From: Sphyrna mokarran
Taxonomy: Eukaryota
DNA length: 64,000 nucleotides
Reading direction: 5' to 3'
Assembly: GCA_024679065.1 (NCBI GenBank)
Contig: JAGIQG010000016.1
Span: forward strand, 12,648,001 to 12,712,000
The position numbers and the translations under genes are program-made. Positions 3,335 to 55,337 of this stretch are shown in pieces (the first letter of the stretch is position 1; each line of letters opens with the position of its first letter). Under the pieces are notes generated by a model. That model was given only the letters and a program-made list of their open reading frames with translations, searched no databases and was not told the DNA's origin.

Positions 3335-5960
3335 AGCGTGGGAATTCCAGGAAATACATCGCATTGATGTGGACTTGTCTGCTGAGGTAGTGTGGGCTGA
3401 GATTAGAAACAAGAAAGGAGAGTTCACACTGTTGGGAGTTTTTTATAGGCCTCCAAAAAGTTCCAGAGAAGTAGAGGAAGGGATTGCAAAGTTGATCCTG
3501 GACAGGTGTGAAAGTAACAGGGTAGTTGTAATGGGGGACTTTAACTTTTCTAATATCGATTGGAAAAGCTATAGTTCACGTAAGTTAGAGGGGTCAGTTT
3601 TTGTTCAATGTGTGCAGGAAGGTTTCATGACTCAGTATGTAGGTAGGCCAACAAGAGGTGAGGCTTCATTGGATTTGGTATTGGGTAATGAACCAGACCA
3701 GGTGTTAGACTTGGAGGTGGGTGAGCACTTTGGTGATAGTGACCACAATTCGGTTACGTTTACCTTAGTGATGGAAAGGGATGGGCATGTACCGAATAAC
3801 AGTAGTTATAGCTGGGGGAAAGGTAATTATGAGGCTGTTAGGAGAGATTTAGGATGCATAGGATGTTGCAGGATATTGCAGGGGCTGGGGACATCTGAAA
3901 TGTGAAGCATATTTAAGGAACAGCTTCTGCATGTCCTTAATGAATATGTACCTGCCAGGCAGGGAGGAAGTTGTCGAGTGAGGAAACCATAGTGTACTTG
4001 GGAAGTTGAATCTCTGGTGAAGAGGAAGAAGGAGGCTTATATAATGATGAGACGTGAAGGCTCAGTTAGGGCAATGGAGAGCTATAAATCAGCCAGGAAG
4101 GAGCTAAAGAGAGAGTTGAGAAGAGCTAGAAGAGGACAGGAGAAGACGTTGGCGGATAGGATTAAGGAGAATCCTAAAGCTTTTTACAGGTATATAAATA
4201 ATAAAAGAATGGTAAGGGCAAGATGAGGGCCAGTCAGAGATAGCAGTGGGAAGTTGTGCGTGGAGCATGAGGAGATAGGAGAGACACTGAATGAGTATTT
4301 TTCTTCAGTATTCACGCAGGAGAAAGACAATGTTGTCGGGGAGAATACTGCGATACTAGGTTGTAGACTGGGCAGGATTGAGGTTCATAAGGAGGAGGTC
4401 TTAGCGAATCTTGAGGGTAATGAAAATTGATAAGCCCCCTGGGCCAGATGGGATTTACCCCAGGATTCTCTGGGAGGCTAGAGAGGCTTTTGCAGAGCCT
4501 TTGGCTTTGATCTTCATGTTGTCGTTAACTACAGGTATTATGCCGGGGAACAGGAGGATGGCAAATGTTGTCCCTTTGTTCAAAAAGGGGAGTAGGGACC
4601 ATCCTGGAAATTATAGACCGGTGAGCCTGACTTCTGTTGTGGGCAAGGTCTTGGAAAGAATTATAAGGGATAGAATTTGGAAGCATCTAGAGAGAAATAA
4701 ATTGATTAGGGATAGTCAGCACGGTTTTGTGAAGGGTAGGTCGTGCCTCACAAAGCTTATTGAGTTTTTTGAGGAGGTGACCAAAGAGGTAGATAAGGAT
4801 AAGGCAGTTGATGTAGTGTATATGGATTTTAACAAAGCGTTTGATAAGGTTCCCCATGGTAGGCTACTGCAGAAAGTGCAGCTGCATGGGATTGAAGGTG
4901 ATTTAGCAGTCTGGATTAGGAATTGGCTAGCTGATAGAAGACAGGGGGTGGTGGTTGATGGGAAATATTCAACCTGGAGTGCAGTTAGACGTGGTGTACC
5001 TCAAGGATCTGTTTTACTGCTGATTGTCATTTTTATAAATGACCTAGATGAGGGTGTAGAGGGTTGGATTAGTAAATTTGCTGACGATACCAAAGTGGGG
5101 GGAGTTGTAGACAGCGAGGATGGATGTTACTGTTTGCAGAGGGACGTAGATAGGTTGCAGAGCTGGGCCGTGAGGTGGGAAATAGAACTCAATACGGATA
5201 AGTGTGAGGTGATTCACTTTGGTAGGAATAAAAGGCGTATGAAATATAGGGCTAATGGAAGGACCCTTAATAGTGTTGTCGAGCAGAGGGATCTTGGGGT
5301 ACAAGTCATGTCTCTTTGAAAGTTGGCACCCAGGTTGATAAAGTTGTTAAGAAGGCGTACGGTGTGTTAGCTTTTATTGGTAGAGGGATTGAAATTAGGA
5401 GCCGTGAGGTTATGTTACAACTGTACAAAACTCTGGTGAGGCCGCACTTGGAGTATTGCGTACATTTCTGGTCACCGCATTTTAAGAAAGATGTGGAAGC
5501 ATTGGAAAGGGTGCAGAACAGGTTTACCAAGATGTTGCCTGGTATGGTGGGAAGGCCTTATAAGGAAAGGCTGAGGGACCTGAGGTTATTTTCATTAGAG
5601 AGAAGAAGGTTACGCAGTGACCTAATTGAGGCGTATAAGATCATCAAGGGATTGGATAGGGTGGATAGTGAGAGCCTTTTTCCTCGGATGGTGATGACCA
5701 ACACGAGGGGGCATAACTTTAAATTAAGAGGTGGTAGTTATAGGACGGATGTCAAGGCAGGTTCTTCACACAGAGGGTGGTGAGGGCGTGGAATGCCCTG
5801 CCTGCAGCAGTTGTGGACTCGCCACTTGGGGGGCATTCAAATGTTCGGTGGATAGGCATATGGATGATATTGGAATAGTTTAGGTTAGAGGGTCCACTGG
5901 CCGGCGCAACATCGAGGCCGAAGGGCCTGTACTGCGCTGTAATGTTCTATGTTCTATGTT
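3335..5960 (+). mobile_element. CR1 (HER1-like) LINE, 5'-truncated, ORF2 (APE endonuclease + RT) broken by stops and frameshifts
   Basis: ORFs 3369-3905 (YRPP, MGDFN, LDLVL, SDHN endonuclease motifs), 4411-5319 (PGPDG, NYRPVSLTS, KAFDKV, GVPQGS, KFADDTK) and 5316-5783 (LYKTLVRPHLEY). 3' tail 'GGCCGAAGGGCCTGTACTGCGCTGTAATGTTCTATGTTCTATG'. Confidence 0.96.
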
Positions 5961-10490: not shown

Positions 10491-12511
10491 TAATTATTTT
10501 TAATTGTTCTTTTATTTTTTTTAATTTATCTTGTCTACTTTTTGTTATTTTCTCAAGTTTACCTCGTTATCAATACAAATTCTAACCAGTATTTAAGTGG
10601 ATTTTAAAATACAATTCAACTGCCTGTTAGTCAACCAAACCTCTGTGATATCACTTTTAGCTTTTTTAAAAAAAAACAAATACAGTGTCTTAATTCAGGG
10701 AATCAGCAGTAGTGTTTCGTACAACTCATCTCTTTCCGTTGTGGCTTCAGCTGGCTATTTCAAATTACTCCCCGTTTCTGCCAAACTCCAAAACACTCTC
10801 ACACCGTCAGGCACTACTCACCCTGCAGACAGAATAGCAATAATTTGTTTCTGCTTTTATAAATTTTAACCTGCAATGCTCGTTTGATTCAATTATACAA
10901 TTGAGCAGACGGAGTTGAATATCTTTTAGTCTCAGAGTAAGAAATCATAGACATTATCTTGCTGTAGAAAGTTTGGAGAGCTGAGAGGTGAATTTCAAAA
11001 TGTTTGAGAGTATTGTTGAAACAAAGGAGGCCGTGGACTTGAATGGAAGCCTCAGAATTTTAATCTGCATGTACGCATTGCCAGCGGAATATACTGATCT
11101 GGAGTTGAGGTTAGTATGGGAGTTTAGCAAAATGGAGAATAGTGGTATTACTGTTTCCTGTTCCATACTTTGCACTTTGAGGGACATTCCAAGACCAGAA
11201 TAAAACATAGTTACGATAATATGATAAGGTTCACTTGGCACTTTCAGGGACATTCCAAGACAAGGCTAAAATATGGAGTAAAATCACTCTGAAATTTTGG
11301 AGATCCAGATAGGCAGACACAATGATATGATGCAAAGAAGTGAACACCACAGTGCCATCATAGGAAAACTATAACAACATTGGTTAATATAAACCGAATT
11401 TAAAATGTCCTCTCTAAATTACTGTCAGATAAATGTTGAATAGATGAATTATAAGAAACTAAAAAAAAATCAGGATAACATTTAATAGAAAATTGAAACA
11501 AAATAGTGATTCGGGGTCAGTTGATGATTTGTACCAGGATTGATAGGCTGGTAGCCTGGGCACACAGATGGCAGATGGAATTCAATCCTGATAAATGTGA
11601 GGTGATGCATTTCGGGGGAAAGAATGTAGGGGAAAGGTATATGATAAAGGGTAGACCTATTAAGAATATAGAAACGCAGAGGGACGTGGGGGTGCAGGTG
11701 GACAAGTCTCTGAAGGTGGCAGAGCAAGTGGAGAAGGGTGAGAAGAAAGCATATAGTATGCTAGCCTTTATAGGAAAGGATATAGAGTACAAGAGCTGGC
11801 CTTTAATTTTGCAGTTATATAAAACACTGGTTAGGCCTCATTTGGAATACTGTGCCCAGTTCTGGTCGCCTTGCTACCGGAAGGACGTGAGGACTCTGGA
11901 AAGAGTGCAGAGGAGGTTTACCAGGATGCTGCCTGGTATGGAAGGTCTGAGTTACGAGGAGGGGTTAGGCAAATTGGGACTGTTTTCCTTAGAGTGACGT
12001 AGACTTAGTGGAGATGTAATAGAGGTGTACAAGTTTATGAGGGGTATAGATAGAGTAAACAGTGTTAAGCTTTTTCCTGGGATGGACTCGAATAGCACGA
12101 GGGGTCACGGGCTTAGGGTGAGGGGGGTAAGGTATAATTTGGATGCTAGAGGGAGTTTCTTTCACACATAGGGTGGTGGGGGTATGGAATGCGCTGCCAA
12201 GTAAAGTGGTGGAGGCAAGTACTCTGGAGTTACTTAATAAGTACTTAGATAGGCACATGAACAGAATGGGAATGGAGGGGTATAGAAAACTGATTTAAAG
12301 TAGGGATCGTGAGCCTTGGGAGTCCCTGGGAAGTGTGTAAATAGATGATGATATTGATGTACTTGTTCTTATCCTACAGGTGCCTTGGTCCACCTTGTTG
12401 TCTAACGAGGGGCATACACGCGATGGATCGTGAGAGGACTCCTGTTGGGCCTTTTTCAAGAGTATCCTACTGCTTCACATCGTTAGTGTATGCTTGACCT
12501 GGACCATCTGA

Positions 12512-12705
12512 TGGGCAACATGACAGCGCAGTGACTATCTGCACTGCTGTGCTGTGCAGATACATGGATTTGGGCCTGAGCCTGTGGTAGTTTGCGCATT
12601 CTCCCCGTGCTTGCGTGGGTTTTCTCCCGGAGCTCCGGTTTCCTCCCACATCACAAAGATGTGCTCTTAGGCTAATTGGCAAAACAAATTCTCCCTAAAT
12701 TGTCT
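12512..12705 (+). mobile_element. HE1-like SINE domain (degenerate tRNA head + central domain) inside the CR1 3' UTR
   Basis: 'GTTTGCGCATTCTCCCCGTGCTTGCGTGGGTTTTCTCCCGGAGCTCCGGTTTCCTCCCACA' is the same central domain seen in the free SINEs at ~32195, ~40812 and ~59348. Confidence 0.85.
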
Positions 12706-12750
12706 CAAATTTGGTTTTTAATCCATAGATCTATAAACATGGACAGGGGT

Positions 12751-12884
12751 AATGTATTTGTTGTAGTACCTATCATGGCCTCGGCGTAAAGCCGCCAGCA
12801 TGCCGTTGGGTGTGATATCCCGTGCAGTGATCCATCGGGAAAGTTCCCCCAGCTTCATGTCCATCAACGCTTCTCGGCGACAGG
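12751..12884 (-). pseudogene. ATP5MF: Fragment of ATP synthase membrane subunit f coding sequence, probably retro-processed
   Basis: Minus strand reads PVAEKR/(1-nt frameshift)LMDMKLGELSRWITARDITPNGMLAALRRGHDRYYNKYI. This matches subunit f as I recall it (human ...KKLLEVKLGELPSWILMRDFSPSGIFGAFQRGYYRYYNKYINVKK). Start, C-terminal transmembrane part and stop are missing. Confidence 0.9.
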
Positions 12885-13782
12885 TTGAAGTGGGAACATC
12901 GAGGTGGCGGCGCGGGCTCGTTGGGCCGAAGGGCCTGTTTCCCATGCTGTTTTGTTCTTTGTTCTTTGAAACATATGAAACTTCTGTACACCATGAGAAT
13001 GAGAAGGAATTCAACAAGTGTTGTATTATAGAGGAACTATGGCTAAAAATTATGATTTGGTGCCAGGTCCACAAATATGGAGATGTGTCAGGGAAGGGAG
13101 CAGTTCAATTGAGGCTATGTTTCAGAAGACAATCAAACCGCAAAGAATAACAACCATGAATTCGGCAAGTAGTCATGGGAAATATACAGTGATTACGACT
13201 CAACCAGGAAGAGAGATCCACACGCTTGCGTTACAGAGACTCCACCCTTGTCCATGTTCAAACGCTTTGTGATTCATGGACACTATCCGCAGAATTCTGA
13301 TCATAATGCCATGGTATCAGAAAGAATTCAGGTCGGGTTAGAAAGATGAATTATAAGTTAATTAATGATCCGTTACTTTTAGAGATAGACAGTATACACT
13401 TTGGGCCTGATAGAAATTCCGTTTATATTGTCCGGCCACTGCCAGTGTTCAGAACATCCAAAATAATGCTCAGAGAACTGATGAGGGATGAAAATATGGA
13501 TTGTTGTTATACTGAATGAATGAGCGCAGCCAGAAACTACATTACGTGACATAACAAAAGCAATAATAATAATATCTAAACGACGAGATAATTCCTATGT
13601 GTCAATAAGAATATAGAGGCAAATGCGTGGTTCAAACTTTCGCGTAAGGGAAATGTATTCCATTTATTGATAAAATAACAACCGAATATTTCACTTAGGA
13701 GCATCCCAATTGAATCATATTGGCACAAGTGTCCAGGTAAATCGCAGAACTCTGATGATAGAGATGTTTTTTTTATAAACTA

Positions 13783-13784
<2 letters not shown>

Positions 13785-13851
<67 letters not shown>

Positions 13852-13910
13852 GGAGAAAGAGAGAGAGTTTGTGCATGTTTCTATGTGTGTGTGTGCGTGT
13901 GTGTGTGTGT
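13785..13910. repeat. Compound (GT)n(GA)n microsatellite
   Basis: Directly visible dinucleotide runs. Confidence 0.97.
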
Positions 13911-15009
13911 GAAGTAAAGTTGTATGTAACAATAACGGGAATGACTTTTAAGGGGAGATAGAACTGAATGCTTGTGATTAGTCTTATTGTTGGCAATAAA
14001 TGAAATGAAATGGTAGAATATGTCAATATTGCTACACATCAGGGAATCACGTAAGTGAAATGAGTCATGGTCATTAATTAAAGTGTAAAGGATCTGGATC
14101 AGAATGTTGGACGCATTGGAGAAAAAAAGAAGTCAGTTAACACGATAAAAGTAGGCAATTGGATTGATTTGCTGATCTTCACTGATCTTCACCATTGCCA
14201 GAAAACAAGGTTTGGTATTTATTATCCAGCGGGGCTCAGCACCTCGTAAGCATAGACTCAAATTGATTTGAGGCTCTGCTGCTTTGGTAACGAATAAAGA
14301 GAGCAATGTTGCGGTGAAAAATATATATATAAATAAAAATCCGGAGCGCGAAATGCAGAATAGTTTTGGAAGTGTTAAGACAAAAAACAGACAAACTATT
14401 GTATTTCTAAAATAGTCATCAGACTCTGCATTTGATTTTTATACGAAGCTGAGCAAACAACGTATTTCAGAACAGGCATGAATCAAATGGCCCACTTGGC
14501 CTCTTATAACATTTAAAATACATACACAATATAATTAAAAAAAACACTATAACGTTACAAATATTTTACGTTTGACCTGGCAATGTATAATCCTTAGTAA
14601 CTTTCAGTCTTTTTTGTTCCTATGTGCAGCGGTCCATATACTTAATCCTATGTCTGGAACAAGTTTACCTATGAAAATAAATTATTACGTTGATGTTGTA
14701 TCTTCATTTTTTATTATTATTGCTGGGTAATGGCAATTTTGAAAACAGAAACTCTCGGAGAGAAATCCACACTCATAGAACAGTACTTCAAAAGAATATA
14801 CTGATTCCAGAACGCACTCCAATGAGAAACGTCAGAGAGGTAGAGAAAACAAAAACGCAGCTTTTTCTCAACTGGAATTGCCGAATTTGTTCTTGAACAT
14901 GCTCTGTCAACCCAGCTTCCCCGTCACATTGCTAGAACCGCAAATACTGTCATCAAGCCTCACACGACAATAGCTCAGTGGAAATCAGCAGAACAACTTT
15001 AGTTCAGAT

Positions 15010-22344: not shown

Positions 22345-23749
22345 TGGTCGTTAAGAAAGGGAACAGGGATAGTCCAGGAAATTACTGACCTGTGAGTTTG
22401 ACTTCAGTGGTTGGTAAGCTGATGGAGAGGCTTCTGAGGGATTTGATATATGAACATTTGGAGAAGTTTGGACTGATTAGGAATAGTCAGCATGTTTTTG
22501 TCAAGGGCAGGTCGTGCCTTACGAGGCTAGTTGAGTTCTTCGAAAATGTGACTGAACACATTGACGAAGGAAGGGCGGTGGGCGTAGTGTACATGGACTT
22601 TAGTAAGGCGTTTGTTAAGGTCCCACATGCAAGGCTTCTGGAGAAGGTGAGAGCGCATGGGATATAAGGGGCTTTGGCTTCGTGGATCCAGAACTGGCTT
22701 GCCGGCAGAAGGCAGAGAGTGGCTGTGGATGGGTCTTGTTCTGCATGGAGGTCGGTAACCAGTGGAGTGCCCCAGGGATCTGTTCTGGGACCCCTGCTGT
22801 TTGTCATTTTCATAAATGACCTGGATGAGGAAGTGGAGGGATGGGTTAGTAAGTTCGCCGACGATACGAAGGTCGGTGGTGTTGTGGATGGTCTGGAGGG
22901 ATGTCAGAAGTTGCAGCGGGACATAGATAGGATGCAAGACTGGGTGGAGAAGTGGCAGATGGACTTCAATGCAGATAAATGTGTAGTGGTCCATTTTGGC
23001 AGGAATAATAGGATGAAGGAGTACAATATAAGGGGTAGGAGTCTTAGCTGTGTTGTAGAGCAGAAAGATCTCGGGGTCCGGGTCCATAGGACTCTTAAAT
23101 CGGCCTCGCAGGTGGAGGAAGTGGTCAAGAAGGCGTACGGTGTACTGGCCTTCATTAATCGAGGAATAGAGTTTAGGAGTCAGGAGGTAATGATGCAGCT
23201 CTATAAGACTCTTGTCAGACCCCAGTTGGAGTAGTGTGCGCAGTTCTGGTCACCTCATTATAGGAAGGATGTAGAGGCTATTGAGAGAGTTCAGAGGAGA
23301 TTTACAAGGATGCTGCCTGGATTGGGAGGCAGGCCTTATGAAGATAGGTTGAGGAGCTGGGACTCTTCTCACTGGAGAGACGTAGGTTGAGAGGTGACCT
23401 GATAGAGGTTTATAAAATGTTGAGAGGAATAGATAGGGTGGACTCTCAGAGACTATTTCCCCGAGCTGAAATGGTCATTACGAGAGGACACAGATTTAAG
23501 GTGCAGGGAAGCAAATACAAAGGAGATGTCAGGGGTAGGTTTTTCACTCAGAGGGTGGTGAGTGAATGGAACCGACTGCTGTTGGAGGTTGTTGAGGCAA
23601 ACTCACTGGAGTCTTTTAAGAGACTTCTGGATGAGTATATGGAAAAGAATAGGATAGGGGGTTATAGATAGGTCTGTGGATTGGTATATGTGATCGGCGC
23701 AACTCGTGGGCCGAAGTGCCTGTTTGTGCTGTATTGTTCTATGTTATAT
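22345..23749 (+). mobile_element. CR1 LINE, 5'-truncated RT and C-terminus with tail
   Basis: ORFs 22392-22667, 22674-23234 (GVPQGSVLGPLLF, KFADDTK) and 23387-23671 (RGDLIEVYK, FFTQRVV.EWN). Tail 'GGGCCGAAGTGCCTGTTTGTGCTGTATTGTTCTATGTTATATG'. Confidence 0.96.
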
Positions 23750-26700
23750 GTCGTCATTAGATTTTAATTACACGCGTTTTGTTGAATTATAATTTTACCA
23801 TCTGTCACAGTTCCCCAGAGCTTTATCTTAGGTGGCTCGATTTTAGTATTGTGAAAATACTACTGTGTCACTTCCTCTCTGATCGAATTACTGATGTTTC
23901 CGGTGATTATCATGGTCCACTTCATTGTTGCGGAGTGGTGGCTCTACTAACAATCGCTTGGTGTGCGTTTTTAAAGTAATGATGCGGTTTGAAATCCAAG
24001 TTATTTTGCATCCGCATGGTAATGCTTGTGGGAGCCATTTTTTTAAAAACGCGTGTTCATTGTGAGACGTGAATACATGATCGTGTTACTTCGAGATTGG
24101 TGTTTGCTTGAAACTTTTATTCTTCCTTTCTAAGCTGGAACATGGATTTCGGGCATTTGTTTTCTTTTATGTCTTTTTTGTTGCATCTGAATATCGACCG
24201 GTTCATTCTTTGACGGCTTCGACATATACATTTTCAACCTCCTTATTTGGAGACGCCAAGTTAAATTTCTCAAAATTCGTTTCTTAATTTATTTACGGAA
24301 AAGAAAAAAATAGTTATATTAAAGAGCTGTTTGGCATTATCACTTAGTAGGTTGTTCAGCAGTGAAGTGTAAATACAGGAACAGTAGATTCAATTCAATA
24401 ACATCGGACCTCGTTGATGAGTTAATGATCCCAGATTCACTCCCACACTAAGGCAGCCACATTTAGATTATTAAAGTTTCACCAACAGGCCAATACCACT
24501 TTTGCGTCAGAAAATGCAGTGAGAATTAAAAATATTTAGGCATTTTTTTTTAATATCTGCCAAAGCACACACTAATAAATAAAAGGGGGATCAGGAAGAA
24601 AGTGTAGATATAAACATGTGTTTCGCATGGATGTTATATTTCATTGTCAGTTTTCTGTATTTGTCTGACTACGCATACGTTTTACTTTTATCTGCCATTG
24701 AGTTTCGATAATGCCAACCAATTAAAAAAACAGAGCATGCTGGAGTATTTTGATGAAAGGTGGCAAAAACTGTGAAAAATAAATCTTAATACATGCATGT
24801 GGGGCAGAATGAGTCTTGTGAGGCGCAATGGATCAATGCAATCGGGACCCAGGAATGATGTAACTAATTATAAAATCAAATACAATTACTTAAATAATTG
24901 ACGTTTCAAACTGTTGTGGGCATCAAAGTACATCAACAATGAAAATCATAGAAGGTGAGGAGAGGGGAGGATTATTAATCCCTGCCTGCCACTTTGTATA
25001 TTTAATACAACGTGGCAGAAGATTTAATTTCAACAAAATATACACGCTCCATATGCCATGCAGAATGCCAGAAATGTGCACCTCAAAATAGAGAAGCACA
25101 ATTTAGTTTCCAGTAGTGCATGCATTTCTGACAGGCAGTTATATTCAATAATCGGGAAATTCGGAATCTTCATTTGGCATTGTGCAAATTCATATCTAGA
25201 AGTAGATACTTACAAGAAAGTAAATGATTTTTTTTTTAATTAATTTGGCGATGTTTCTCCTCGTAAATGGTGTCGCAAGTTTGTAGGTAAATTCGATGGG
25301 AGATTTGCTGCTCCAACTCATCTGGATCAAATTGTGTTATTTGAAGAAAAATCACATTTCTATCATAGGTACATTAAATGTGAAAGCATATTCAATGGCG
25401 TAATTATCATATTATTCCTCTTGTAAAGGCATTTCATCTGGCCCTAGCTCAAGTCAGTTGTATCGAGTTTACCGAATTGCAACAAAGAACATTTCATGGC
25501 TTTTGTTGCACTCTTCCATATAGATGTCTGGCTATTTTTATCAGAAGTACGGCCTGTCGGCTTTACTCCTGCAAAAATACTGCGTAAGAGGTTGGCACAG
25601 TGGCTGATGGCTTAACATTATGAGAGCACAATGCTGAAATACCCTGTGCTCCCTGGAAGTTACCTCAACAAAAGAACCTCCAGGGTTACAATCGAGAAAC
25701 AAACGGTTGAATTACGGAATAAAATGGTAACGTTAGACTGAGACAGAGATTTGCTGATCGAAATCAAAACGATTGGAAAAGTGTTGGTCATTGCATAAGA
25801 ATGTACAGAAATGCCCATTGAGTGAACCTGGGATGGGTGTACTCGGCTGGCTTGTCAGATTGTTAAAAAAAAAATGAAGACTGGACTCTATTTCGGCGTG
25901 ATAACATAATACGTGCAATTATTGCAACTGGAGATGTTTAAGTCATCATTTATATCCAGCAAAAAAATGATGACGTCAGATTCCACATCGAGCAAAGCCA
26001 GCATATCTATGTTGGATGAGCTATCAATGATCTAGAATAATTGTTTCGGAATGGGTTATTATATCTAATGATTCATTCTGGAGACAATGTCAATGAAGTA
26101 ACTCTAAACAGGATAACGTAACAGAAGAAGTCCTCATCAAAATGAAAAATCTCGAGACATGCAATAAAATTGGAAGCTAAAATTTGCATGTAAAATGTAC
26201 AACAAATTGAGAAATCTCTTCCATTGAACAACTGGGTAGCTATAGATGCAAGCAACACACTGCAAGCGTGCTCAACGGAAATTAAGCACCAATCAACAAC
26301 AACATATTAAAATACTTTCCTACATTTTTTGGAAAGCCATCCCACACTTTCTCATTCCTACATAAACAGAACTGCAATTACTTGAGAAGGTTTCTTTAAC
26401 CATCACTCAAACTTGCACATCTTACATCTTTCTACCTGAAGCTATGTCAGTTGAATTAATTTCTAATAAATGTAAAAGAAACTGCGGCAACTACATTTTC
26501 ATAATGAGTAATTGATACATGAGCATCACGATGTATTCTGCATCTTGGAAATTTGTTTGGTTATTGGTTTGTCCTTTAGAATATGAGTGTGGGAACCTAC
26601 AGGAAATACTGGAACAAAAACTTCACTTTTAACATATTCGTCGAGCTTAGCACCGATGACACTTCAAATTTTCCTACGAAAATAAAGAAAACACAATCTT

Positions 26701-28350: not shown

Positions 28351-28524
28351 CATGATGTAGAGATGCCGGCGTTGGACTGGGGTAAAGACAATAAGAATTC
28401 TGACAACATCGTTTTAAATCCAACCGATTTATTTGATAGTAAACTCGCAAGTTTTCGACTCAAGCCTGCGAGTTTACTATCAGATAAATTGGTTGGATTT
28501 AAACTAGCTTAGTCAGACTTCTTA
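28351..28524. mobile_element. Short palindromic insertion (Penelope terminal-repeat-like) with a 12-bp flanking direct repeat
   Basis: Inverted arms ~28412-28451 and ~28464-28504. CTCGGATTTGGA is repeated at 28339-28350 and 28525-28536. The start 'GATGTAGAGATGCCGGCGTTGGACTGGGG' is a common shark repeat as I recall it. Confidence 0.75.
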
Positions 28525-33960: not shown

Positions 33961-35479
33961 GAACAATAAAAGTTCATCGCTGTCAAAAAATACAACCAGG
34001 CTTGGTGTCTTTTGAAATCTTTAGGATTTCTTCCGTGTACCCCCTCTGTTGGTGAGTTATTTTGTTCTTTTTGATTTGATTGATTTTGGTGTTTTGCTGG
34101 TGTGTTCTCGTGAGAGATATGGACAGCTGAAAGGATAGAGAGCTGTACTCTTCCTCTCCACCTGCGAGGTGGGTTTTGCTGACCCCTGAGCTCCGCTTGC
34201 AATCGCGTTTATCCCTGTGGTTACCTGTATTTTTTTGTCGACAACAGGATAGTTCAGTTCGTTTTTCCCCAACATCATCACATTCTAATTCTATTGGTTC
34301 TTGTATGGCGGGTGTTTTCATTAATTGATTAGGAAAAATCGACTATTCAAATGCCTGAGACATTTTGCAATGGCAAAACCGTTTTCTGGTCTTGGATTTC
34401 TATATAAATGATTCATTTTGGACCTCTTTAATACTTAGTAATTTAAGTCTCTAAACACTGAAACCAAAAACTGCTTTTAAAGTGGCCACATAATGTTTAG
34501 CCGTCAAATATTTTCTCTACGTTCTTTTACTCGTTATAAACTCAACAGTCGAGTACTGACAACTTTCGTCTTAAGAATCAAACTGATATGAGCTTGAGTT
34601 GGAATTCTGAACTCAAAAAGATACAATAGTCACAGTTGCATTACATCATGCAGTATTGAGGAATGAATGAGCTCTAATTGTCTTCTACACTTTCCTTCCG
34701 TGGCACGTGATTCACCCCTTTCCCAATAACCATGTTCGCACATGATTTCCTTGTTGTTGAACTCAAAATGTGCTGTTGTGCGAAGATTTCAGAAACATTA
34801 CTGAATCATTTCTTACTTATGTTCTGGTCATTACCATCAAAATCTGTTTTCGATTGCGTAAATCCCCTCTTCATAGCTACTTTATTTCATTGCGGACTAT
34901 GCACATTTTGTTTCATCATATCCTTAACAGTATTTAAAATAATGAGGGTACTGCGTGCGGCATAGCTTTTTTTTTGTACTAGCCAAATATATTGCGTCCA
35001 TGAATCAGCTGGAAGAACTTTTTCCCAATAATGAAATATTCTCTTCAAGGTAAACCCTCATCCTCCCTGTTTTCATAACAGGCAATGGGTCGCGAATACA
35101 TTGCATCCACTCACATCTTATATTCATTCCATACCTCCTGAGAAGGAGTCATTAACATCCAGCACTGTACAATTCTGCAGTCATTTGATGATTTGTATTT
35201 TTGTTTTAATTAGCACACGATGGCTTGCATATCAAATGTTATTCTGAATATTCCTGCTGTTATCTTATGGTATTTTTTTTTATTCCGTTGTTCTTACCAA
35301 ACTAGTTCTGTTCTTCCCCACTAACACTGCCAAATAACCCAGTCCGTGATTTGTTCCGAGGATGTTTAGATTGAATTGCAAACGTCAGGTTGACAAGTTT
35401 CAATGTGTTGCTTGAAATATTTCTTGTAATGGTATGAGACCATCGCTGTCTTTCAAAAGGCAACCACATAGCTGTACGT

Positions 35480-36780
35480 ACCTGATGGCGCCCATTCACT
35501 CTCGGAGAGGATTGCAGTAAGGTCGGCCCTCTCCAGCTATCTGTATTCTATATGCATGGAATTATTCCTGCATCTCTTGCGGAGGAGTTTGTCGTATTTG
35601 ACCCTGCGCGACCCAGGCGCAGAGGTGGAACTGTCCGCTTACGCGAATGATGTGCTCCTCATGTTCACGGACCTGACTGACCTGCGGAGGATGCAGAATG
35701 TCAGCTGGTGTATTTCGCGGCATCCTCTGCCAGAATCAATTGAGCCTAGCGTTCCGGGCTCCTGGTCGGTCCGTGGAAGACAGACCCCCTTCTGGAGGAC
35801 CTCACGCCTTTCATCTGGAGCAGGATCAACCTCCTCCAGCGGATGGTCCATCTCTGCCCAGCGGAGGAAGCCTAACCAGAGAACTGGCGGTAGCTGGAGG
35901 CCAAAGTCATGGCCGCCTGAGCCGCTAAACGGGACTGCTCCAAGTTTTGCCCTACTGGGCAAGAATTCTTATTACAAATCAGTTGGTTGCTTCTATCTGT
36001 TTTACCTGCTGGTCACTATGACTTCTCCCCCTGATTTTGTCGCTAATATGCAAAAAGAAACCCTGCGTGGTTCTCCTGGGACAACCGACAGTATTGGGTT
36101 TCTGCCAAGGTTCTGCATCGCCTGCTTGAGGAGGGAGGCCAAGGTCTCGTGTGAATTCTCACACAGGTAGCGACCTTCCGCCTCCAGACCCTGCAGACAT
36201 ACATTTACATCGAGCCTACTCTACGATGGCGTGTCCTGGCGACGTATTTGTTCCGTCAGTTGCACGGCCTTAATTATGACATACTGCTCCCGCATATCAT
36301 CTTGAGGCTTATTCGAACCTCCTTTTGGGAGTTGTTGGTCTTTGATCCGAAACTCCTCACGATCTGGAACCCCGTTCACATAGCAACGCAGCTCTCCCCG
36401 TCAGGAGTAGCGGCTCTCCTGTGATAGCGGCTACTTAGGAATCCGCAGCTCCAGCCCTACAACTTCAGGTAGCTGGCGGAGAGTAGGGTCGTGGACGCCA
36501 GGGTGATCAGGATCGGGGACGTGCAGGATGAAGGAGCAGCTAGAGGCTGACCGCACGGGGGTGGCCGTGTGGCGCGCGGGATAAAGGCAGTCAAGAACTT
36601 GCGACGGTCGTCCTCTGCCCTGAGTGTGCGCACATTACTTATCACATTGTTATTTGATGTTTTATGTTCCGTTTCAACTTTGTTTTTTGTTCGGGCTGTC
36701 CCCTTTTTAAGGAGCAGCCACTTTTAATCTGTCCCTAAGTTAATTGGTGTTTGTGTATTTGGTTGATATGAAAAGAGATA
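35480..36780 (+). mobile_element. Tx1-type (L1 clade) LINE 3' fragment with internal deletion
   Basis: Decayed RG..QG.PLS..LYS.CME.FL.LLRR and 'LSAYANDVLL' (LSAYADDV) RT motifs, GC-rich body, and a T-rich 3' UTR ending '...GATATGAAAAGAG'. Confidence 0.8.
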
Positions 36781-50055: not shown

Positions 50056-50390
50056 AAGAGCAACACAGCACGGGAAACAGGCCCTTCGGCCCAACGAGCC
50101 CGAGCCGCCGTCATAACTATATAGTAGCAATTCCATTATCCTATTATAGATTTAGGTTATTCCTAATATGGAAGACTCTCACTATAGGGACAATTTGTTT
50201 CCCAATCAGCCTAAGAGCGAAGTTTTTGGTTGTGGGAGGAAACCGGAGTGCCCGGAGAAAACCCACGCAACCACGGGGAGAACGCGCAAACTCCCGCAGA
50301 CACCGGCCCAATTCCAAGTGTCTGCACAGCCACATCGATAGTCTCTGAGCTGTCATGGTGCCCTTCAGATGGTCCACATAAAGCACTCAC
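50056..50390 (-). mobile_element. 5'-truncated copy of the composite CR1 3' UTR / SINE-like element
   Basis: Same tail (CAGGCCCTTCGGCCCAACGAGCCCGAGCCGCC), central SINE domain and 'TCAGATGGTCCA' extension as 12470-12967. Confidence 0.9.
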
Positions 50391-52899
50391 TCAATTGTTC
50401 AATTGTTCAATAAGGAACCTAATAGCATTTTGTTTTCCTCCATAGAATGTTTTGTGTATATTTTGTTACGGAGGAAATAAAGTTGTATAAGAATCATGAC
50501 AGGCTCCTTTTTTGCCAATTTTGTTACGTTTTCATGAAGCTGAGTAACCGAATTGCTACCCGTGATTTGAGTGTTCTTTTGTAGTTTATCGGATTGTCTT
50601 CCATAATATTGTCATCACTAATTCTGCAGCAGCACTGAAAGGTCAGCAAATGCCACGTCCCAATGAATATTGAATCGATGCACAAATAGCTGCAGGCAGG
50701 TTGCACATTGTGCTTGATCTCTCTCTCTCTCTCTCTAAACCTGACTTTTATTGCCACGTGATCTTGAATGCGTTGGATTAATTTTGCTCATTTATAATTC
50801 ACATAAACATTCATCAAGGGTATACATGAAATTGGCGTTTGCAATTCTGACTTAAATTGTTCACACTGGAGCACGTTATTGGGTATATTCCAAAGAATAA
50901 TAATTTTCCATTGGATATGCAAATACCGTTGGAGGAATGGTGTGACATAATTCGGCTCCTCAGAAATGAATGTCAGAGTGCGGCCCTGCAAAATTTACGT
51001 CCACTATTGAGCGACGCTAGCAGACATATTGACAGTGTGTTCATGTGTATGTTTCTGCTATTTTCAGAGATAGTAGTAGTGAAGTTTTTGGAACAACTTG
51101 TCTCAAATTTTCAGAGAACTTCAAGACTTTATTTGGCAAACCACGACTAGTGTGGACGAATGATTTATTTTTTCTTACAACATTGAAGAGCATACAGACC
51201 AACTTATCTCGACGGTCTTGGAGGTATTTCTTCAATGCTTTAGGAAAAGCACTCTGCTAATAAAATGAAGGAGATTCAATCCACGTCTAGAATTCCGCCC
51301 AGTGATGGTGAGGAGCTTCTCGATAGTAATAAGGTTATTTGAGCTTAATGTGACACAGTTTCTTATCAATTCGAAATGACACATTATCAATATCATTGGA
51401 ACAGTTCGATTTATGACGAAACGTGAAGCATCGGGCGGAAATGAGCTGGGGAGTCATCGATGGCGATAAATTTATAAATGTCACACTAGAAGATGCATTT
51501 TTACTCTTTAATAAGTCTGTTGTCTGAAAATAGTGTGAAATGAATCTTCGCGGATACTTCTAAACTCGGTTCTGACTGTATTTTCTGCTTTGCAAGCGAT
51601 TATGAGCTGATTACACAACTGTGGGTCGAATAACATTGTTATTCTGAACGTCGTCTTAATGAAGCAAAATGATCAACTTAAGATCCACAACTAATTTCAT
51701 TTTTTTTTTTCTGTAGCATTGGTCATTTCAAAAATGTCAGGTCAGTCAAAATCCCAGTCCAAAAAACAAAGTAACAAGCTGAACGCTCGTAGCAGCTGAC
51801 ATAATTCAAAATCAACGCTGTTTATCGGAGGGATAATTGTCCAATGACAATGAAGGAATATATTATTGCCATTTTTTAGTATGTCGTGGTGATAAACTCG
51901 GTTGAATAATTGAGTAAAATTATAGTATTTTAGACTTTCTTCTCATTATCAATGAAACTTAAAAAAACGTGGCCTGAATACGGGAGCGTTCATCGCTAAA
52001 GGTTATCAAGTAATTCAAAGAATTCCAGGTCAACCATGTATCGTTTGATTAAATGCACAGCCAATCTCCAAATGCCAACCCAGTGAGGTGCAGAGAGGAA
52101 GGCATGTTTGTAGCAAATCTGCCACATGCAATTTGCAATTAATTATTAAGGAATATTCCTTTCATGTTGATATTCCTGAAAAAGTGAATGTTTTAAACTG
52201 GTCTGAATGATTTCAATAATAAAAATCGAATGTGCAAAAATACGAAATAAAGAATATATGACACATATGTACTGGAGTATCTCTTGACAAAGTTGTACCT
52301 GCAGCAAACGGTACAACCGAGATCAGTAAAGAGAACAATGACAATATTTTAAGAAAACAAAGATGTTTCTGACGTGGAGGATCTTATTCTACCCTGTGTC
52401 GACTTCTCACCCGCCTCGCAACCCGTGCCCCGCAAATAAAAATGCCCAACAGGCAGGAACAGTGGGGATTTTCTCTCTCTTTTTTTGGTGTGGCGGGGGG
52501 GGGGCGCTTATAATAGACCGAAGCTGTGGAACTGTCTCGGGGAGGCACATGTCAAAAACAGCGGGGCGAACTTCCTGACTACGCATACCCATCAACCGTC
52601 TGCTGTCCAAAGTCCACATCACCCCATTCCACAAACTGTCGTGCAAACTTTTATCGTCAGGACCTTGTGTAGCTACACCAGAAATTTGCAAAAAAAGCAA
52701 AAAAAAAATTGAAATGCAAGATTTGAGAAATATGTAACGAGTTAAAAAGGCATGCTGATTAGTTAAGTCGCTGCAAAAATGTGGAAAGAAATAATATGTG
52801 AAACATGAAGTTTGATGTTTTTGGACAGAAATGTCAATCTGAGACATAAATGGAGAAAAGCGGCAGAACCTGTATTATAAATTATCTTTGCGGAATTAT

Positions 52900-54960: not shown

Positions 54961-55337
54961 AAAGAACAAAGAATAAAGAACAAAGAGCAACACAGCACGG
55001 GAAACAGGCCCTTCGGCCCAACGAGCCCGCGCCGCCGTTCTAACGTCTTAATGACATATCCAAGACTTTAGGCTATGCCTATTGTGGAAGATTCCCATAT
55101 AGGGACCAATATAGGGACAATTTTTTACCCAATCAGCCTAAGAGCACATTATTGGGATGTGGGAGGAAACCGGAGCACCAGGAGAAAACCCACTCAACCA
55201 GGGGGAGAACGCGCAAACTCCCGCAGACACAGGCCCAAATCAATGTGTCTTCACAGCAACAGCGATAGTTTCTGAGCTGTCATGTTGCCCATCAGATGGT
55301 CCAGTTTAAGCATACACTAACGACTTGAAGCAGGACA
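54961..55337 (-). mobile_element. 5'-truncated copy of the composite CR1 3' UTR / SINE-like element
   Basis: (AAAGAAC)n tail, CAGGCCCTTCGGCCCAACGAGCCCGCGCCGCC, central domain, and the extension 'TGTCATGTTGCCCATCAGATGGTCCAG..GCATACACTAACGA..TGAAGCAG' matching 12470-12525. Confidence 0.92.

Follow-up and report, generated by a model that had tools for sequence, protein, structure and literature searches.

An antisense piece of spliced ATP5MF mRNA inside a CR1-type LINE copy of Sphyrna mokarran, probably left by break repair

How does a piece of a housekeeping mRNA come to lie, in reverse orientation, inside a retroelement? This question is raised by a locus in the stretch of 64,000 nucleotides of Sphyrna mokarran DNA that was analysed here as a whole (the window). 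An original prediction placed an antisense fragment of ATP5MF, the gene for ATP synthase subunit f, inside a SINE-type retroposon and had it acquired internally from mRNA and possibly spread with its element. Here we describe the fragment, its host and its joints, and weigh the routes by which it may have arrived.

Results

Identity and origin of the fragment

The unambiguous ATP5MF insert comprises 131 nt on the minus strand (12751-12881), with exon 2 joined directly to exon 3. The extent first proposed, 12751-12884, thus holds a real fragment but overruns it, since 12882-12886 belong to the junction. Translation of 12751-12884 gives PVAEKR in one minus-strand frame and LMDMKLGELSRWITARDITPNGMLAALRRGHDRYYNKYI in another, the peptide frame being split by a 1-nt deletion at 12866. 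The peptide matches the Pfam family WRW (PF10206, E 5.7e-8, above the cut-off) and eight subunit f sequences in PDB (ATP synthase subunit f, E 4e-11). Together with a parent gene on another contig (C927), this result confirms the predicted identity.

The parent is a four-exon gene with an open frame and a matching mRNA contig; the donor is intact. Fragment and parent are about 95% identical overall (Table 1), with six substitutions and one deletion separating them across about 134 nt. The parent's 1,334-nt GT-AG intron is precisely missing from the fragment. An RNA contig from run X2 (same organism; its RNA label is a guess) spans 12750-12881 with the same splice and differs by five letters and one gap, its loose ends running on into exon 3 and exon 1. 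The exact join of exon 2 to exon 3 and the matching RNA contig therefore show that the fragment derives from spliced mRNA, in agreement with the proposal that it reads through an intron at the R-G position.

The insert also lies opposite to its host element, and neither a poly(A) nor a target-site duplication (TSD) of its own was found around it, both as predicted. It does not look like a classical processed pseudogene: the mRNA piece stops within exon 3 and lacks the mRNA 3′ end.

A DNA search of the same genome gave seven matches among seven candidates, namely the window, two pieces of the C927 locus and four diverged copies, and a protein search with exon 2 recovered the same six loci. The four diverged copies (L003-L006) are older ATP5MF retrocopies, 74-81% identical to the fragment compared to 93-100% for the parent gene. 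Two of them, L005 and L006, retain exon 4, the 3′UTR and an A-run; L005 is interrupted by a tRNA-headed SINE. Retrocopying is therefore ordinary in this lineage, contrary to the expectation that processed pseudogenes would be rare here. According to a preprint (10.64898/2026.06.26.734816), the genomes of cartilaginous fish contain 14,081 retrocopies. At one codon (LMDV/MKLG) the fragment and three of the four older retrocopies encode Met and the parent Val, which may reflect a recent change in the parent.

Table 1. Features of the ATP5MF insert, its host LINE copy and the parent gene (positions in the window; parent exons lie on contig C927)
Feature	Position	Strand	Details
Candidate 8-nt TSD of whole LINE copy	11493..11500	+	Partner 12966-12973; weak; about 0.1 expected by chance (estimate)
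ORF2, C-terminal part	11539..12297	+	In-frame stop 11995-11997, frameshift near 12159
LINE 3′UTR	12298..12750	+	Unique part, SINE head, central domain, linker; colinear in siblings
Decayed tRNA-like SINE head	from about 12516	+	Aligns with tRNA-headed SINE in L005
V-SINE-like central domain	about 12583-12690	+	Aligns with SINE in L005; putative V-domain
Left junction	12749..12750	.	1-nt microhomology at 12750; 12749 is G
ATP5MF exon 3, first 29 nt (3′ part of mRNA piece)	12751..12779	-	32/32 nt to parent; boundary AG/GCCATG
ATP5MF exon 2, nearly whole, spliced to exon 3	12780..12881	-	100/107 nt to parent; RNA contig
Right junction, 5 nt	12882..12886	.	Mismatch to mRNA at 12882, to element at 12886; 12884 common to both
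Family 3′ tail, ending in TTCTTTG repeats	12887..12968	+	Subfamily letters match left arm
Parent ATP5MF exon 1			16 coding nt; then 2,107-nt intron
Parent ATP5MF exon 2			108 nt; then 1,334-nt GT-AG intron inside Gly codon of RRG-HDRYY
Parent ATP5MF exon 3			117 nt; then exon 4

The host is a dead LINE copy

The host is not a SINE, as had been supposed, but a 5′-truncated, dead copy of a LINE: ORF2 lies colinear upstream as far as 12297, as it does with the 3′UTR in siblings, and the SINE-like unit sits in the LINE 3′UTR. We tentatively take the LINE to be of CR1 type on its motifs and the type of its tail, and the central domain of its 3′UTR to be V-SINE/HE1-like. Eight longer siblings, sharing about 1.4-2.4 kb pairwise, have the RT region in the same frame together with RT motifs. 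A related copy in the window has RT and endonuclease Pfam matches, while the focal C-terminal piece of ORF2 has none. Changes in the focal ORF2, 8 synonymous and 26 not, are neutral. An Rfam search of 11000-14000 gave nothing above the gathering score, and no tRNA gene was found at the default threshold.

Exact linker matches put the family at 11,154 copies or more. Its 3′UTR is about 540 nt long and closes with a complete, decayed tRNA-headed SINE-like unit, which is missing from the short UTRs of older CR1-like copies in the window (about 5700-5960 and 23300-23750). Judged by its sequence, the family looks like a LINE-SINE fusion that later amplified. In sharks and rays, HE1 is paired with the HER1 LINE in a table of PMC3747384, and a search of the largely open-access literature returned no paper on a LINE with a V-domain 3′UTR. 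Two short copies elsewhere in the window, at 50056-50391 and 54975-55333 (minus), share the central domain and tail around a different, shorter linker and represent a related subfamily.

At the 5′ end of the host copy, the 38 nt (11501-11538) that separate the candidate TSD from the start of the LINE are only loosely like the expected family sequence, and no source for them was found among the loci compared. The part of the element around the insert, 12589-12962, is nearer to the family majority (2/214 sites) than the part upstream (45/983; P 0.01, with the boundary chosen post hoc).

The window also contains a 232-aa frame (35472-36170) with no Pfam match at E 0.01, which by its motifs resembles a decayed Tx1/L1-type reverse transcriptase, and a 63-nt inverted repeat, 81% complementary with a 7-nt spacer (28392-28524). 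For a host exon, we scanned the 100 longest non-repeat frames that follow the first, out of 459 with a length of at least 45 aa; none of these frames gave a Pfam match above the cut-off, a scan that would miss short exons.

One element, interrupted once

The left arm and the tail carry the same subfamily letters and therefore belong to one interrupted element; a mosaic of two subfamilies is ruled out by the same agreement. The host element picks up again at 12884-12887, so that 5 linker bases are lost if 12884 is counted to the element and 8 if the element starts at 12887. One base common to both parents on each side is what chance would give. Positions 12749, 12882 and 12886 match neither parent. 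Three mismatches at about 10 joint-adjacent sites correspond to P 0.006 at a 3.9% background, for a window of sites chosen post hoc. At 12749, where the host copy has G, the first 100 family copies listed have A in 98 and G in 2. A 6-nt repeat (12742-12747/12879-12884) was considered as a TSD and rejected, as it is not flush and hinges on one base.

Each chimeric junction matches once genome-wide (pattern search with up to two mismatches; controls 0), compared to 11,154 genome-wide matches for the empty linker, 13 nt between exact anchors. When gaps of 25-250 nt were allowed between these anchors, 32 matches resulted, of which 30 were fetched: in 8 the downstream anchor was a chance match, 12 were tail-after-tail duplications, in 3 a short stretch of tail was duplicated and in 7 the linker was altered. 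The altered linkers consist of two nested tails of another CR1 family, four local duplications and the ATP5MF insert itself, and the two unfetched rows start with the normal linker. The insert is absent in 47/47 similarity-picked siblings with a mapped tail (48 picked, one without a mapped tail), and the linker is empty in 7/7 neighbouring copies chosen by position. In run X1, possibly the source sample, the insert has a DNA depth of 14.3, compared to 14.3-14.7 for the unique flanks. The ATP5MF patch is a single-copy event that was never amplified. Amplification with the element, as originally proposed, is contradicted by junctions that occur once each and by one such case among 32 long-gap matches beside all the empty linkers.

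A hotspot for inserts in the linker was not seen within these gap lengths and the 30 of 32 matches fetched, nor was a close sister subfamily of the host copy (of 9,758 candidates 40 were scored, the best at 95%). In the 12 tail-after-tail loci, another short unit of linker plus tail sets in directly behind a complete tail, suggesting either that the RT re-initiated or that insertion was targeted to the tail repeats of the family itself. In L127 and L130 (about 1500-1700), the same linker harbours nested short 3′ tails from a second CR1 family; these carry short flanking repeats, unlike the ATP5MF patch.

Age and expression

Private non-CpG changes number 2/109 (polarised) or 4/109 (unpolarised) in the fragment and 47/1197 in the LINE copy (P 0.43-1.0), the polarisation, by the four older retrocopies, being uncertain. 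CpG decay is likewise similar (1/11 versus 7/33, P 0.66). The ages of fragment and element overlap, and their order of insertion is inseparable by these counts. A LINE-bearing, patch-free allele or ortholog was not found; runs X20 and X22, from two other organisms, did not contain the locus flanks.

The host copy is 3.9% diverged compared to 1.2% in similarity-picked siblings, with an A>G excess (P 0.014). The apparent 3-fold excess arises because these siblings were picked by similarity, a selection bias: eight neighbours sampled by position show 3.6-11.4% divergence (rows at 12% or above filtered out). The idea that the host copy had been hypermutated or RNA-edited was discarded, as the signal is gone with position-based sampling.

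In X2, the insert is covered by a single contig, that of the normal mRNA, and nothing covers the unique flanks. Contigs with a chimeric junction were not found in this one RNA run, nor were the antisense element transcripts that had been anticipated, with the proviso that contigs show presence and not absence.

Discussion

A probable break in a resident LINE copy

We consider that the antisense ATP5MF piece was probably copied into a germline DNA break in a resident LINE copy and sealed by end joining. The break would have occurred after insertion of the LINE copy and exposed a top-strand 3′ end at 12750. This end could have primed reverse transcription inside exon 3 or captured ready-made cDNA. 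Copying of about 131 nt towards the mRNA 5′ end would then have been followed by joining to the right arm, with a LINE RT acting in trans or a repair polymerase as candidate enzymes. The patch is predicted to be functionless and to have decayed neutrally.

Orientation speaks for this route. A top-strand 3′ end priming on mRNA directly gives an antisense piece, so that a break in a resident copy explains the orientation in one step and matches class 2 insertions and RT-product-mediated repair. In the model in which reverse transcription is target-primed (TPRT), as set out in PMC2912911, the strand made first runs antisense to the LINE RNA. If the RT had switched to an mRNA while making it, the piece would consequently lie in sense orientation, and the antisense piece argues against an ordinary first-strand template switch. 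CR1/SINE-like DNA makes up at least 8.5% of the surrounding 464 kb, so a patch landing in such an element needs no special link. Against break repair stand the overlapping ages, the LINE-bearing, patch-free allele or relative that was looked for and not found, the small share of the host LINE family itself in the local DNA (about 1.4%), the position of the patch just some 80 nt from the LINE 3′ end, and the 3′-end tandem duplications of the family (12/30 loci), which hint at a jump-prone RT.

Possible capture during LINE insertion

Internal acquisition by template switching, as first proposed, survives as a minority rival: its first-strand form gives the wrong orientation, and only 1 nt of microhomology is present per side. 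In its second-strand form, which we regard as possible though unlikely, the CR1 RT would have paused in the linker during LINE insertion, jumped to ATP5MF mRNA, made 131 nt of antisense copy and gone back to the first-strand cDNA at a point 5-8 nt beyond. This form fits the antisense orientation, the overlapping ages, the closeness of the patch to the LINE 3′ end, the tail-after-tail duplications and the untidy 5′ end of the host copy with its 38 nt of non-family sequence. Nevertheless, it requires two switches at 1-nt homology and fixation of a looped heteroduplex, and it has to account for one such insert against 11,154 empty linkers. The double-switch retrocopies of LTR elements described in PMC5131818 replace part of the element and show a median microsimilarity of 6 bp.

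That a stringent CR1 RT jumped to a cellular mRNA and back in second-strand synthesis, leaving an internal antisense capture upstream of the tail, seems to us a shade more doubtful again. If true, such a jump would be fossil evidence for second-strand synthesis by CR1 RT itself and would offer tail-dependent LINEs a route to gain host sequence; the same route could have supplied the SINE-derived 3′UTR of the host family.

Other routes

A DNA-level copy, by gene conversion or a DNA patch, from an ATP5MF processed pseudogene that has been lost or is unassembled appears improbable. The genome does hold four other ATP5MF retrocopies, with which the fragment shares a few letters against the present parent. 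Those letters read as ancestral states, the retrocopies are far less similar to the fragment than the parent is, and no closer donor was found among the 7 DNA and 7 protein candidates scored.

An assembly artefact or cDNA contamination is very hard to credit. It could draw on X1, the only DNA run with the locus, being possibly the source sample, and on an X1 contig that reaches just 29-31 nt past the right joint. Neither the parent gene nor the mRNA contig, though, has the frameshift and substitutions of the fragment, and DNA contigs from short reads agree with the fragment at 0 differences and at the depth of the flanks.

Least credible of all is a fragment that joined a mobile element, amplified and yields antisense RNA against a housekeeping mRNA: its place, with the central domain on one side and a 3′ tail that looks intact on the other, invites the idea, which is refuted for this assembly by one copy per junction and faces a truncated, broken host and the X2 contigs described above. 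A twin-primed second insertion into an older copy was also rejected, as it would leave two tails and only one is present.

Comparison with known systems

The ATP5MF patch is one event with no sign of function. If RNA-templated break repair is the right reading, as is most likely, the patch would be a natural germline case outside mammals with an empty-site control from thousands of siblings, and high-copy young LINEs could gauge the frequency of such patches. Should antisense mRNA pieces be shown to be enriched near CR1 3′ ends, this would bear on second-strand synthesis of LINEs. In the largely open-access literature searched, no report of a CR1 3′UTR containing an mRNA piece was found.

Intron loss is shared with L1-type processed pseudogenes, and top-strand priming on RNA gives inverted sequence in twin-primed 5′ inversions as well, as described in PMC2912911. 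Compared with both, the patch lacks the mRNA 3′ end, poly(A) and TSD, and its inverted piece is internal, with sense LINE sequence of 1.2 kb on the upstream side and a single tail downstream. An internal mRNA piece with one retroelement on both sides also recalls LTR-mediated retroposition as reported by Tan et al. (PMC5131818). In contrast to the double switch of that report, the host here is a non-LTR element, 5-8 nt are replaced, the homology is 1 nt, the piece is antisense and no further cycles followed.

The class 2 templated sequence insertion polymorphisms (TSIPs) described by Onozawa and Aplan (PMC5110952) have no TSD and no poly(A), and show microdeletion, microhomology and extra bases. 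The patch resembles them in all these traits, the extra bases being at the joint, and also in its distant-locus template and spliced exons. Those insertions, as characterised in that paper, are polymorphisms in humans and cell lines, whereas the patch is old (a few % diverged) and lies in a LINE 3′UTR of a fish. Similarly, breaks in mouse zygotes captured partial spliced mRNAs, one of them in reverse orientation (Ono et al., PMC4516963). This RT-product-mediated repair of double-strand breaks shares with the patch a spliced mRNA cut at both ends, short microhomology and reverse orientation; the breaks in that report were CRISPR-induced, while the one proposed here is natural and inferred. The ATP5MF patch is a genuine one-off event, and the kind of event is already known.
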